From Bacteriovoracaceae bacterium (GTDB lineage: Bacteria; Bdellovibrionota; Bacteriovoracia; Bacteriovoracales; Bacteriovoracaceae), in NCBI GenBank assembly GCA_049599895.1, contig JBMYPC010000093.1, positions 1 to 12,070 on the forward strand: 12,070 bases of DNA, written 5' to 3'. Shown here piece after piece: positions 7,850 to 12,070 of the stretch; the first letter of the stretch is position 1, and every line of letters starts with the position of its first letter. The position numbers and the translations under genes are program-made. The notes beneath the pieces are model-generated. The model was not told the origin of the DNA and searched no databases. It saw nothing but the letters and a program-made list of their open reading frames with translations.

Positions 7850-9235
7850 CTAGTCTGTTCGCATTTCAATGACTCGAGGTTCAAGGAGTTCCATCGGAGT
7901 TTTCTTTTTCTCTTTATCTTTGTCGTCTTCTCCATTGCTACCGTCTTTGTCACTATCATTTTCAGAACCTGAGTCTTTATCTCCGTCTTTGTCATCTCCC
8001 TTCTTTTTCTTCTTTGGAGGCTCGGGCTTGATAGGCAGATCAACAAAGGCCACAATTTTATAATAGCCTCTTTCGTATTCACCAACTGATTCAACTTTAA
8101 AAAGCTTTCCGGCTGTTCCAACTCTAAGGCCCGCGAGTTCTAGCTCTTTCATTCGGTCTTCAAAGTCTTTCAGTGGAACAGCTCCCATCTCCTCGACGAG
8201 GACCTTTTTAAAATCTTCTTGGGTCTCAAATTCTCGAGGTTCGATTTGCTTTTCTTTGTCTCCGTCTCGAATTTTAAAAAAGTCTTCGAGTTGTTCTTTA
8301 CTAAGTGAGGGAAAAAGTTGTTTCAGTTGTTTTTTAGTCAGGTCGTTTAAAGGAATGATGCTGACTTCGTGGACTGTCAGTCTGTCTTTAATCAGTTCGA
8401 TCATAGCATCTGGCCAACCTAAAAGAAGGTGCATTTCATCGACACTTGTCATTGGGGCATGTTTTGGCTCGATATTTTGAGAAAGATATTGGGCCTCAAT
8501 TTCAGCTCTTTCTGAGTCATTAAAATCTTCAGGTCTATTGACATAAAATTTAATCTCTTTTACCAGAAGCTCTGGACGAAGATTCCCATAAAGATTATCA
8601 AACTCTTCGTCTTCTTCACGTTTTTCATCCATGGATTGTTTTAAAGCTTCTATTAGCTCTTCTTCCACGAGTTGATGAGGAAGCTTCTTTTCTCCTCCCT
8701 CTCCCTCTTCTCCTTGAGAACGAGACTCACTGTCTTCGTCTTCATCTTGACCCTGACTAGGACTTTTCTTTGGAATCCTCATATTGTTGGGATTGAGAAA
8801 GCCTGAGACTGGGGTAATCGTGACAAAAAGTTTTCCTTTGAAAATAACACTTTTTTCAAACTCTTGAAGAAGGCTTTTTTGATTGGCAGAGGCCTTTTCG
8901 GGAAGAGGAATAGGGTAAGCAAAAGGTTGAGTAATGATTCCTTCGAGCATTGAGGGCTTGAGGACACTTTTCATATCCTTATTCTTTTCTAAGAGATTAA
9001 AAGCATCTTTGTAGAGTCTAAGCTTGGCCATCGCGAAATTAAGACCACTTTCAGCATTAAGTTTTGCCTGAAGTTTGTCTTGAAGGTTATAGACTTTAAA
9101 CTTATTGAGCTCTGTTTCGAACATAAGATCACTCATAAGAAAAGACATTATGGCAATTGAGGATATCACCATGAGAAGAGCGATGCCTTTTTGAGGTGCT
9201 AATAAAAGTTTTTTAAGGAAGTCTTTATTCTTCAT
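7850..9235 (-). CDS. gspK: Type II secretion minor pseudopilin GspK (461 aa)
   Basis: Prepilin site QKG|IALLMVI lacking Glu5 (typical of GspK), QAKLNAESGL, FLNPN, KHAPMTSVDEMHLLLGW, IPLN. AAGGAG RBS; overlaps the gspJ stop. Confidence 0.88.
   Translation of the reverse strand: MKNKDFLKKLLLAPQKGIALLMVISSIAIMSFLMSDLMFETELNKFKVYNLQDKLQAKLNAESGLNFAMAKLRLYKDAFNLLEKNKDMKSVLKPSMLEGIITQPFAYPIPLPEKASANQKSLLQEFEKSVIFKGKLFVTITPVSGFLNPNNMRIPKKSPSQGQDEDEDSESRSQGEEGEGGEKKLPHQLVEEELIEALKQSMDEKREEDEEFDNLYGNLRPELLVKEIKFYVNRPEDFNDSERAEIEAQYLSQNIEPKHAPMTSVDEMHLLLGWPDAMIELIKDRLTVHEVSIIPLNDLTKKQLKQLFPSLSKEQLEDFFKIRDGDKEKQIEPREFETQEDFKKVLVEEMGAVPLKDFEDRMKELELAGLRVGTAGKLFKVESVGEYERGYYKIVAFVDLPIKPEPPKKKKKGDDKDGDKDSGSENDSDKDGSNGEDDKDKEKKKTPMELLEPRVIEMRTD
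7901..8029 (-). repeat. Low-complexity K/D/G/S tract in gspK with four imperfect DKD repeats
   Basis: Encodes KPEPPKKKKKGDDKDGDKDSGSENDSDKDGSNGEDDKDKEKKK; GTCTTT[GA]TC-like units recur on the + strand. Confidence 0.7.
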
Positions 9236-10088
9236 CAGACTCCTTTGAATTATTATTATTTGATCCTGTCTTTGTGCTCTTTATCGCATCGATATCTTTT
9301 TGTGGATCAAAATACGGCCAATTGACTCGAAAACTTCTCTGAAATTCGATCTCATTGCCATCTTGGGATATCCAGACAAGATTGACCCTGAGTAGACGAA
9401 GAGAGTTTTTCTTTTCGTTGAGTTCTCTTGGTGAACTGACAAACTTTTTTAGTTCAGTAGACCAAAATTCAAACTCAAGAGACTTAATACTTTTTAATAG
9501 AACTTGGGCCCGAACTTTATCCCAACTGTGCTCTTTGGTGTAAATATTTTCAGCGACAACTTGTCTGACGAGCTCGTATTCTCCACGGGGAATCTCATCA
9601 TCGTCAGATTCATCTTCTTTTTCTTCGGTGTCTCTTAAAGAGTAACGAATCCAAGCATAATTTGATTGTTTCGTATCCTGAATTTTTCGTTTGTTGGCAG
9701 AACTGAGAAACACAATGGAGTCCTTTGATAAAGAATCCATACTTGGGACAAGATGTCCTCTTCCGGTCATCACTGGAAACTTTTCACTAGGAGTAAAGCT
9801 TGTATTTTGTTCGAACTCATCGAGGGAGTTATTTTCTTGTTCATATAAAGAAGAGTCAATTCGCTTCAGGCCTGAATGGAAGAGCGGAGAGTAGATACTA
9901 TCGATATCAAGTTCAAGGCGATAAAAAGCAAACTCTAATGAGAGGCGATCACGGTCTTCAGAGACAACAATTTCTCTTGTCTCTGTGCTATCAGAAATCA
10001 TTGTATAAACCATTGTCATCATAAGCCCGAGAAGAGTCAGGGCAATGAGGATTTCAAGTAATGTAAAGCCTTTATTATTTTGAACCAG
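9225..10088 (-). CDS. gspJ: Type II secretion minor pseudopilin GspJ (287 aa, probable CTG start)
   Basis: The frame extends upstream of ATG 10022 as (M)VQNNKG|FTLLEILIALTLLGLMMTMVY and is bounded by an in-frame TAG at 10103-10101. CTG at 10088-10086 lies 8 nt after AGGAGG. Position is between gspI and gspK. Confidence 0.82.
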   Translation of the reverse strand: MVQNNKGFTLLEILIALTLLGLMMTMVYTMISDSTETREIVVSEDRDRLSLEFAFYRLELDIDSIYSPLFHSGLKRIDSSLYEQENNSLDEFEQNTSFTPSEKFPVMTGRGHLVPSMDSLSKDSIVFLSSANKRKIQDTKQSNYAWIRYSLRDTEEKEDESDDDEIPRGEYELVRQVVAENIYTKEHSWDKVRAQVLLKSIKSLEFEFWSTELKKFVSSPRELNEKKNSLRLLRVNLVWISQDGNEIEFQRSFRVNWPYFDPQKDIDAIKSTKTGSNNNNSKESDEE

Positions 10089-10089
10089 T

Positions 10090-10596
10090 TTAAAACCCTC
10101 CTATTTCAACTTGAGCTTCAACATTATAAAGCCAATGAGTGACATTATATTTTTCACCAGAGAGTTTTGATTCAATTTCCACATCAACCTGCCAAATAAG
10201 CTTTTCCATATTTTTGGTGACGGTTTCAGAGATTTTCTTTTCTATTGCAGAGGCAGATTTGCCTTCAGGGTCGTCCGCCTGAGTTTTTAATTTGCTAAAG
10301 TCAGGCAAGGTAAACTTTTTCCATGTGAGAGTGTAAAGATAGTCTTCCTCATCATCAAAAGATTTTTGGGTAGAGGTTGCTGTCAACGATTCATTAAATG
10401 TTGGAGGATTGACAATGAGTTCATTGACCACTTTTTGGGCAAGGGATCTCAGTTTAAGGTTTTCTGGGAAAGTTCCAGAGATTCCAACTTGAGTTCCTTG
10501 GACTTGCACAAAAACTGTGGCAAAAGTTGCAAACATTGCTAGAGCAATAACAACCTCAAGAAGACTAAAGCCCTGTTGTTTCTTTAAAAAGCTCAT
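10090..10596 (-). CDS. gspI: Type II secretion minor pseudopilin GspI (168 aa)
   Basis: MSFLKKQQG|FSLLEVVIALAMFA prepilin motif. ATG 10596-10594 overlaps the gspH TGA (ATGA coupling), so it is preferred over TTG 10611. Confidence 0.8.
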   Translation of the reverse strand: MSFLKKQQGFSLLEVVIALAMFATFATVFVQVQGTQVGISGTFPENLKLRSLAQKVVNELIVNPPTFNESLTATSTQKSFDDEEDYLYTLTWKKFTLPDFSKLKTQADDPEGKSASAIEKKISETVTKNMEKLIWQVDVEIESKLSGEKYNVTHWLYNVEAQVEIGGF

Positions 10597-11276
10597 TTTA
10601 CTTTTTTCCAATCATTAAAAAGCTCTTGAGCTTTTGAAATTCCTTGATCATAGACATCTTCAATGTCATCAAGTGGAGGATCAAAAGGGTAGCGATTGAT
10701 TTCAAAATCATAAGTGAAGGCAGGAATCGTAAGAGAAACGACTTCATCGTAATTGGCGATAAAGAGAATCGATTCATCCCTTTCACCACTTGGATAAATA
10801 TAAACAGAAGCTTCAAAGTCTGTTAAGAGATCTTCATGGAGAAGGCTTCCAACCCCTATAATCACAGAGTCTTGATTAAATTCTTTTGCCTTTTCTTTAA
10901 ATTCTGGAAGGCGGTTAAATTTTTTATTTTCTTCTTTTTGAGTTTTTTCGAATTCTTCTTGTTCTCTTTCAGTAAGATCATCACGATTTTTTTGATTGAG
11001 TGAAGAAAGAGGAATAACGTAAGAATCATCTGGCCCGTATTCGAGGGTGAATTTTTGAGGTTCATCATCCAAATAGAAATGGAGTCTGACGATGGCATTT
11101 CTCATTGCTGCTTCGTCAACTCCAAAGCGAACAGCTCGTTCAATGAGATCAGTGCTATCAAGGGCGCGGTCTCGATCAGGGCCAGCAAAAGAAAGGGCCA
11201 TACCTAGGACAAGAGAAACAAGAACTAGGGCAACGAGAATTTCAAGGAGGCTAAAACCTTTTTGCTGCTTTAGGAT
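10593..11276 (-). CDS. gspH: Type II secretion minor pseudopilin GspH (227 aa, probable ATC start)
   Basis: The frame extends upstream of ATG 11201 as (M)LKQQKG|FSLLEILVALVLVSLVLGMAL. ATC at 11276-11274 lies 5 nt after AAGGAGG. VYIYPSG matches the GspH/FimT-type F-x-P-x-G motif. Position is immediately after gspG. Confidence 0.8.
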   Translation of the reverse strand: MLKQQKGFSLLEILVALVLVSLVLGMALSFAGPDRDRALDSTDLIERAVRFGVDEAAMRNAIVRLHFYLDDEPQKFTLEYGPDDSYVIPLSSLNQKNRDDLTEREQEEFEKTQKEENKKFNRLPEFKEKAKEFNQDSVIIGVGSLLHEDLLTDFEASVYIYPSGERDESILFIANYDEVVSLTIPAFTYDFEINRYPFDPPLDDIEDVYDQGISKAQELFNDWKKVK

Positions 11277-11293
11277 CTTGGCCTCCTTGGAAA
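11240..11293 (-). promoter_or_regulatory. Predicted mRNA hairpin that sequesters the gspH Shine-Dalgarno and start codon
   Basis: Perfect 9-bp inverted repeat: + strand CAAGGAGGC at 11243-11251 and GCCTCCTTG at 11281-11289; extendable on both sides. Confidence 0.6.
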
Positions 11294-11297
11294 GGTT

Positions 11298-11768
11298 TTA
11301 TTTATTGGATTCGTATAATAAAATGTCGGCATCTTGGCCTTCGCCACCTTCTTCATTATCAGGTCCAAGAGATTTGATATTAAATCTTCGTCCATCACTT
11401 TCATAAACATAGTCATTGTCCCAAGGATCGAGTGGAACACCTAGCTCGCCATCAAGAAAACCATTTGGTGGGTACTTCTTACATTCTTTACCTGATGGCT
11501 TACTGATAAGAGCTTCAAGGCCTTGGTCTTGAGTTGGGTAGAAGTTACACTTTCTTTTGAACTCCTTAAGTTGGGTTGCCAAATTTCCCATTTGGATTTT
11601 TGCTGCCTTAACATTCCCTTCATGAAGAGAGTCTAAAACTCGACCACCAACAAATGCGACGATCCCACCTAAGAGGGTCAGTGCGACAAGAATTTCAAGA
11701 AGTGAGAAACCAGCTTCGTAGTGTCGGTTCTGCTTTTTGTTAGTTTGAGTTTTTGTTTCGAGATTCAT
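11298..11768 (-). CDS. gspG: Type II secretion major pseudopilin GspG (156 aa)
   Basis: EAG|FSLLEILV, YPTQDQGLEALISKP, VPLDPWDNDYVY, and C-terminal SLGPDNEEGGEGQDADI (Ca2+-binding loop pattern). AAAGGT RBS. Confidence 0.96.
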   Translation of the reverse strand: MNLETKTQTNKKQNRHYEAGFSLLEILVALTLLGGIVAFVGGRVLDSLHEGNVKAAKIQMGNLATQLKEFKRKCNFYPTQDQGLEALISKPSGKECKKYPPNGFLDGELGVPLDPWDNDYVYESDGRRFNIKSLGPDNEEGGEGQDADILLYESNK

Positions 11769-11794
11769 AAATCGTTACCTTTTACTTAACAGTA

Positions 11795-12070
11795 TTAACT
11801 AATTTTATTCAGTTCCATCATAGGCATGACGACCGAAAAAACAATAAGCGCCACAGCGACACCCATAAAAACAATCATAACTGGTTCTAGGAGTGAAGTG
11901 AGGCCAGAAAGTTTATTATCTACCTGTTCTTGATAATTTTCCGCGACAATTTCGAGCATGGGTTCAAGCTCACCACTAGATTCGCCGAGTTTGATCATAT
12001 GGGTCATCATTGAGGGGAATAATCCGCTTTGATTGAGAGGTCCTACAAGAGAGGCACCAGCGGCGACTTC
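11795..12070 (-). CDS. gspF: Type II secretion inner-membrane platform protein GspF, C-terminal part (5'-truncated by the window edge)
   Basis: Frame is open to the window end: EVAAGASLVGPLNQSGLFPSMMTHMIKLGESSGELEPML...LTSLLEPVMIVFMGVAVALIVFSVVMPM, a GspF/PilC signature. Confidence 0.95.
   Translation of the reverse strand, partial: EVAAGASLVGPLNQSGLFPSMMTHMIKLGESSGELEPMLEIVAENYQEQVDNKLSGLTSLLEPVMIVFMGVAVALIVFSVVMPMMELNKIS

Follow-up and report, generated by a model that had tools for sequence, protein, structure and literature searches.

An ATC codon as the probable start of a gspH-position pseudopilin gene in a Bacteriovoracaceae bacterium, and the recurrent absence of canonical gspH starts in its family

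The gene in the gspH position of a T2SS operon from a Bacteriovoracaceae bacterium lacks a canonical start codon ahead of its prepilin motif, and we hold it highly probable that it starts at the ATC codon at 11276, whatever the purpose of such a start. The window analyzed is a 12,070-nt stretch of one contig (G000:C93:1-12070). Its source genome is labelled G000 and the relatives are labelled in the same manner (G003, G017 and so on). The host is a marine bacterium of a predator family; its relatives bear the names Bacteriovoracaceae and Halobacteriovorax, which are obligate predators. Its genus contains one genome, G000 itself.

On the minus strand of the window, the end of gspF is followed by gspG and then by genes in the H, I, J and K positions (Table 1). 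The best hits of gspF (which is cut by the contig end), gspI, gspJ and gspK were below the curated cut-offs. Elsewhere in G000, gspD and gspE on contig C25 and a Peptidase_A24 gene of the prepilin-peptidase family scored over theirs. The gspF-G-H-I-J-K order and the presence of the T2SS core in the same genome place these genes in a T2SS. The H-position gene matches the profile of its own family with an E value of 1.3e-77, contains no internal stop, and ends in an ATGA overlap with the start of gspI. TIGR01708 was its best curated hit (E 5e-08), but the score of 33.1 bits is below the cut-off of 80, so the name gspH rests on position. A profile search of solved structures with this protein returned no match at E 0.01. 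There was likewise no match to gspH in plasmids, where gspG hits were present. The protein thus resembles GspH/XcpU/PulH as described in PMC6211770 in its operon position, its G/FxxxE motif (the slash marks the cleavage site) and the gspD, gspE and prepilin-peptidase-family genes in the genome; it differs in being divergent, with a mature form of about 220 residues and 33 bits against the required 80. At the other end of the window, a long open reading frame at 9-1889 on the plus strand is cut by the contig start. It resembles a glutamate synthase large subunit, of which it would be the C-terminal part.

Table 1. Features of the gspG-gspJ region, by position in the 12,070-nt window
Feature	Position	Strand	Details
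gspG, major pseudopilin	11298..11768	-	ATG 11768, stop TAA 11300-11298; TIGR01710 102.2 bits (cut-off 88.85); PF08334
Buried ATG, +1 frame, in the gspG D-A-D-I codons	11270..11332	-	20 codons, stop TAA 11272-11270 just past the ATC; SD -7.5 kcal/mol
10-nt direct repeat	11275..11340	-	copies 11340-11331 and 11284-11275, before the buried ATG and before the ATC
Second 10-bp inverted repeat	11252..11300	.	11300-11291 with 11261-11252; begins at the gspG stop; absent from the lowest-energy fold
Predicted RNA hairpin (inverted repeat I1)	11243..11289	-	arm 11289-11281 pairs with 11251-11243 (S-L-L-E codons); covers the SD and the ATC
Shine-Dalgarno (SD) AAGGAGG	11282..11288	-	5 nt upstream of the ATC; -11.2 kcal/mol
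ATC, likely gspH start codon	11274..11276	-	7-residue leader M-L-K-Q-Q-K-G
gspH-position minor pseudopilin	10593..11276	-	227 aa from the ATC; cleavage site G/F at 11258
gspI-position minor pseudopilin	10090..10596	-	ATG 10596; weak SD (-3.3)
gspJ SD AGGAGG	10097..10102	-	within the last gspI codons; -10.7 kcal/mol, top 2.2%
gspJ-position minor pseudopilin	9225..10088	-	likely start CTG 10088-10086

A first-pass annotation had claimed that no ATG, GTG, TTG or CTG lies between the gspG stop and the G/FSLLE of gspH, and this is the case across all 13 codons. After the TAA of gspG, the minus strand reads AAC CTT TCC AAG GAG GCC AAG ATC CTA AAG CAG CAA AAA GGT TTT AGC CTC CTT GAA, with the SD, the 5-nt spacer and the ATC at exactly the positions the annotation had assigned to them. 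The ATC is the sole ATN, CTG or ACG codon within the 13-codon stretch. Its SD was compared with those of 276 canonical starts of G000, defined by their alignment to a canonical G003 start, and only 1.4% of these equalled or exceeded it. The anti-SD was checked on the 16S tail of G003 because the 16S rRNA is unassembled in G000. The distance between SD and ATC falls at the mode of the genome (5-6 nt after GGAG), and AAGGAGG occurs 222 times genome-wide, or about 0.001 per 30 nt. When translated from the ATC, the protein has the N-terminal G/F-x-x-x-E motif and the hydrophobic helix of a prepilin, scoring 31.5 bits with the Pfam N_methyl profile PF07963 (cut-off 21.2) and 25.6 bits with TIGR02532 (cut-off 16.3). 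When it is read from ATG 11201, no NCBIfam family was matched. The indispensable N-terminus is thus preceded by no ATG, GTG or TTG, and an SD is suitably spaced from a codon that differs from ATG by a single base. The missing canonical codon, the intact motif and the strong SD together uphold the earlier proposal that gspH needs a non-canonical start and that ATC is the best candidate. The prediction that gene callers would truncate the gene was borne out as well, since the protein collection carries exactly the 202-aa short form.

The same SD could in principle serve another codon, either CTA 11273 or AAG 11270, which lie 8 and 11 nt past it, or ATG 11201 could be used alone to give a protein without the helix. 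Two family genomes described below have no ATN, CTG or ACG candidate at all, which suggests that odd codons may serve in this family. However, in E. coli, 10.1101/063800 gives initiation at 1-2% of AUG for AUC, AUU, AUA and CUG and at 0.1-1%, below AUC, for the 57 other codons. ATG 11201 has no SD, and the helix encoded ahead of it is intact and typical of the family. We consider a start at any of these other codons quite unlikely.

The gspJ gene appears to be a second case in the same operon. There is no canonical codon before its G/FTLLE (10070), its frame is closed by an in-frame TAG, and the CTG at 10088, which is 1 nt past the gspI stop, is likely its start. At the offset of this CTG, genomes G017 and G081 have ATG. 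The hairpin at gspJ was not significant (z -0.05). Of 12 prepilin-like motifs in the list for G000, 10 look real, and two of these 10, those of gspH and gspJ, are without a canonical codon.

We surveyed gspH starts in the family. The GspH profile matched in 222 of 237 family genomes and all 222 loci were examined. The prepilin motif was found in 217 of them, and the removal of three that were cut upstream left 214 to be scored. A canonical codon was absent from the open frame before the G/F of gspH in 16 of the 214 genomes (7.5%), distributed over eight genera, and retained in the other 198. The same loss was seen in none of 210 gspG genes, none of 206 gspI genes and one of 203 gspJ genes, the single gspJ case being that of G000. 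On a midpoint-rooted FastTree of 200 genomes, the 16 gspH cases fall in 6 to 9 separate places; genera g1, g30 and g83 group with ATG genera in a clade of weak support. Among 21 scored gspH genes (from 23 loci) of the phylum's other families, none lacked a canonical codon, a sample too small to show a difference. An earlier and partly overlapping set had given 18 of 158 distinct junctions, including L122; this junction has an in-frame TAG four codons before the G/F, is probably an error or a null allele, and was left out.

The candidate gspH codons in the other lineages are CTG, ATA and ATT. In genus g12, the CTG is part of a CTGA stop-start overlap in all five of five cases, and a metagenome locus (L116) has kept its SD and CTG despite a shifted gspG stop. 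The ATA group has gaps of 41, 47 and 54 nt, and the ATA is in frame with each of them. In 14 of the 16 cases overall, an ATN, CTG or ACG codon is accompanied by an SD that scores -4.9 or better. The two without such a candidate belong to genus g68 (L257 in G122 and L299 in G127); both have a GTA directly past the gspG stop and a strong SD. This GTA, two bases off ATG, is our best guess for a possible g68 start. At two g83 junctions (L313 in G177 and L315 in G180), the gspG-gspH gap is 123 nt and the nearest canonical codon is more than 30 codons before the G/F; such junctions may hide more near-cognate starts. An SD with ATC at this position was seen in no relative, in a comparison where the genus has one genome and the nearest proteins appear to be called from inside gspG; CTG or ATA is conserved in other lineages.

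The strength of the SD also differs between the two genes. The median across genera is -5.15 for gspH versus -7.7 for gspG (52 versus 61 genera, p 1e-8), although the SD of gspG in G000 is itself weak (-3.9). Near-cognate starts have a significantly stronger SD when tested by species (p 0.024) but not when tested by genus (p 0.12). These survey p-values are overstated because kin are not independent.

In G000 the gap of 39 nt keeps gspH in frame with gspG, so readthrough of the gspG TAA would produce a GspG-GspH fusion. However, the 16 family cases lie in all three frames relative to gspG. The active site of prepilin peptidase is cytoplasmic and the pseudopilin domain periplasmic, and an internal prepilin site behind such a domain would not face the peptidase. 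Readthrough is most improbable.

A more substantial alternative is suggested by an ATG buried within gspG at 11332. In 113 of the 214 scored genes, the nearest canonical gspH codon is more than 8 nt inside gspG and is the only one; wherever the gap was open to scoring, such buried codons lay in the +1 frame. In genus g36, the Asp codon that supplies the buried ATG is GAT in 47 of 47 genomes, versus 23 of 47 for the next Asp codon, so the buried start looks real in that genus. The three nearest proteins (57-61% identity) appear, as judged from their N-termini, to be called from codons inside gspG in the same frame as ATG 11332. DNA for these proteins was not found in a single-protein metagenome scan or in a scan of the P0006 genome. 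In G000 the buried ATG is out of frame with gspH, and one added base would bring gspH under it. The main rival for the ATC is therefore that gspH belongs to ATG 11332 and that one base was lost, be it by an assembly error, in a recent null allele, or with correction by a slip of the ribosome or RNA polymerase; the ATC would then be a chance occurrence and the SD an arm of a hairpin only. The +1 frame has its own SD and is open to 11272, and genome G077 differs likewise by one base from its sister genomes. Regarding an assembly error, one Logan contig of run X1, which may derive from the source sample, spans 9800-12070 with no differing letters, no gaps and a word depth of 9.5 in a comparison of contigs rather than raw reads; runs X2 and X3 contributed no contigs. 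Regarding a slip, runs at the junction reach no more than 4 A and 3 T, and the X XXY YYZ heptamer, the slippage motif that we used to check for frameshifting, is absent from the +1 frame. Only G064 among the 222 genomes has an internally broken gspH, so an indel within a target of 25 nt must be far rarer than the 16 near-cognate cases among 214. Moreover, a lost base leaves gspJ unexplained, given the in-frame TAG that closes its frame. We regard the loss of one base as unlikely. The gspH of G064 (L249, G064:C111:364-1057) is in two overlapping pieces. At the 3' end of gspG in G167 (L324), the position of the buried ATG reads ACG since the Asp codon is GAC, and the gspH frame there has no canonical codon.

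We also considered whether initiation is relaxed throughout the genome and rejected this, as 851 ortholog pairs between G000 and G003 yielded only two clear cases and one possible one. The comparison covered 2.0 of the 3.4 Mb of G003. The raw filter picked out 24 pairs on the G000 side and 14 on the G003 side, and most of these were by eye alignment overhang. The cases left in G000 were gspH and gspJ as the clear ones, one possible gene, a frameshift gene of a known type that from its motifs we take to be prfB-like, and two split genes. The possible gene (G000:C95, minus strand, frame offset 7811), presumably murJ-like, has homology that precedes its first ATG, and a GGGGAG followed 3 nt on by a CTG that is a possible third near-cognate start in G000. 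The split genes are on C65 (offset 13038) and C66 (offset 11848), both on the minus strand; their homology to G003 begins after an in-frame stop, so that each is split or frameshifted. IF3 scored over its cut-off, with a core that aligns to five relatives without gaps. Judged from open frames, infC starts with ATA or ATT in all six genomes compared; in G000 (L031:1502-1489, minus strand, contig C41), an ATA stands behind GGGAGG, and the five relatives have ATT. The infC ATA appears to be a start of the usual autoregulated kind. In G003 (L404, plus strand, offset about 1583-1640), a gene that we assume to encode a TadE-like pilin has no canonical codon before its G/QSTIEF; its candidate start is an ATA behind AGGAGG.

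The gspG-gspH junction of G000 is predicted to fold into a hairpin with 9 bp of pairing at the SD and a stability of -20.3 kcal/mol (z -4.09), which none of 200 shuffles matched. Opening the start region would require 16.2 kcal/mol for gspH versus 4.3 kcal/mol for gspG; 7 of 300 synonymous recodings reached the gspH value. In the model, the stem stays folded when bases are held open to 11289 and the SD is freed only by opening to 11283; a ribosome standing at the gspG stop is thus not predicted to free the SD by itself. The second inverted repeat would compete with the inner hairpin. Since the SD is the 5' arm of the hairpin, it is not fully independent evidence for a start. The hairpin cuts both ways, as it could be a second brake on gspH, or the SD-like word could be kept merely as a stem arm. 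A direct repeat like the one in Table 1 occurs in 1.5% of 5000 random 100-nt windows, and its two copies would fit a duplication of the start site followed by a change of ATG to ATC.

In a survey of one genome per genus, hairpins with z < -2 within 65 nt past the gspG stop were present in 23 of 63 genera, compared with 7, 5 and 4 of 63 at control sites after gspH, after gspI and inside gspH. We examined the hairpin as a marker of non-canonical starts and discarded this idea (median z 0.03, n=16, versus -0.23, n=62; p 0.81). Two other roles for the junction were also rejected: no terminator-like site was listed by the scan and no U-tract follows the stem, and 4 promoter-like sites were seen versus 5.8 expected.

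We lean, with little more than even confidence, to the view that the ATC and the SD-occluding hairpin together form a selected step-down in translation, from GspG, which is abundant, to the tip pilins, which are present in few copies. We speculate that ribosomes finishing gspG, or those in the 20-codon +1 frame from ATG 11332, might open the hairpin; a ribosome in that frame would cross the SD stem. The strong SD would then set fMet-tRNA on the ATC at perhaps 1-2% of AUG efficiency, if the E. coli value applies. Prepilin peptidase would remove the 7-residue leader, and since the leader is cleaved off, the position and the codon of the start are free to vary. Through translational coupling, gspI, with its ATGA overlap and weak SD, and gspJ, with its CTG beside the gspI stop, would likely take on the low rate as well. 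PMC6211770 describes a single tip complex of the four minor pseudopilins, carried by a body of GspG, so little GspH is needed. The recurrent loss at gspH in eight genera, and never at gspG, fits a step-down after the major pseudopilin. Against a selected step-down, ATC was seen in no relative, the SD may be only a hairpin arm, and hairpins are not stronger in the non-canonical class.

It is possible, although on balance we doubt it, that the ATC is the true start and is merely tolerated. Weak starts would drift in at gspH with a strong SD to compensate, and the hairpin would stabilize the gspG part of the mRNA. Tolerance would be expected of a gene whose leader is cleaved off and whose product is needed at about one copy per pseudopilus. 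According to PMC6211770, P. aeruginosa and K. oxytoca can almost do without GspH, since secretion is barely affected in xcpU and pulH mutants. The codon also varies by lineage (ATC, CTG, ATA, ATT), most relatives have a canonical one, weak starts generally tend to have a compensating SD (PMC5622118), and lost starts are easier to detect in prepilins than in other genes. However, gspJ is also near-cognate here, yet its homologue XcpW is required for secretion (PMC6211770). Weak SDs and hairpins concentrate at the gspG-gspH junction across genera, and switches from AUG to CUG or AUU among close genomes amount to about 1e-5 per gene, or 3 in 61,358 (PMC5622118). The selected step-down remains the reading that we prefer.

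Translational coupling through a hairpin that occludes an SD is an established arrangement, and stem-loops follow the major pilin genes papA, bfpA and tcpA. Like those, the gspH stem is stable, lies just past a highly expressed gene and would lower the expression of the downstream gene. Unlike those, it comes on top of a near-cognate codon, and its 3' arm belongs to the sequence that encodes the pilin helix. Near-cognate starts described in PMC2830850 include those of infC (ATT or ATA), of dnaA (ATC) and rpsL (CTG) in Deinococcus, and of plasmid repA (CTG). Like these genes, gspH has a start that is probably one base off ATG and a conserved N-terminus upstream of the first canonical codon, and it is misannotated by gene callers. 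The genes in PMC2830850 function in translation or replication and each keep a single conserved codon; peptide evidence backs the starts of dnaA and rpsL. In contrast, gspH encodes a secretion pilin, varies its codon by lineage and has a predicted hairpin over the site. GUG and UUG starts are compensated by a stronger SD in PMC5622118, where CUG and AUU genes were left out as too few. The pairing of a weak codon with a strong SD at gspH follows this trend; the difference is that 7.5% of the members of one gene family are without a canonical codon here. In the literature searched, which included few subscription papers, we found no near-cognate starts in pseudopilins or minor pilins and nothing relevant on stems at the gspG-gspH junction. 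ATC, CTG and ATT/ATA starts and SD compensation are already known; what stands out here is the recurrent loss of canonical starts in one secretion-pilin gene.

Natural near-cognate starts are thought to be rare, most known examples being a handful of genes for translation and replication. A clean detector of lost starts is offered by prepilins, whose start must precede G/FxxxE. The loss at gspH in eight genera, with differing codons, provides a natural series for distinguishing a selected setting of subunit ratios from tolerance. In the broadest form of the idea, which we put forward only tentatively, the gspG-gspH junction of the Bacteriovoracaceae would be a step-down switch that has been rebuilt repeatedly from ATC, CTG, ATA, ATT and perhaps GTA codons, buried starts and hairpins. 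In G000, the 20-codon frame would open the SD hairpin and pass ribosomes to the ATC; through coupling, this would determine how much of every tip pilin is made. As gene callers cut off the pilin helix, the T2SS tip pilins of these predators will be overlooked or called broken.
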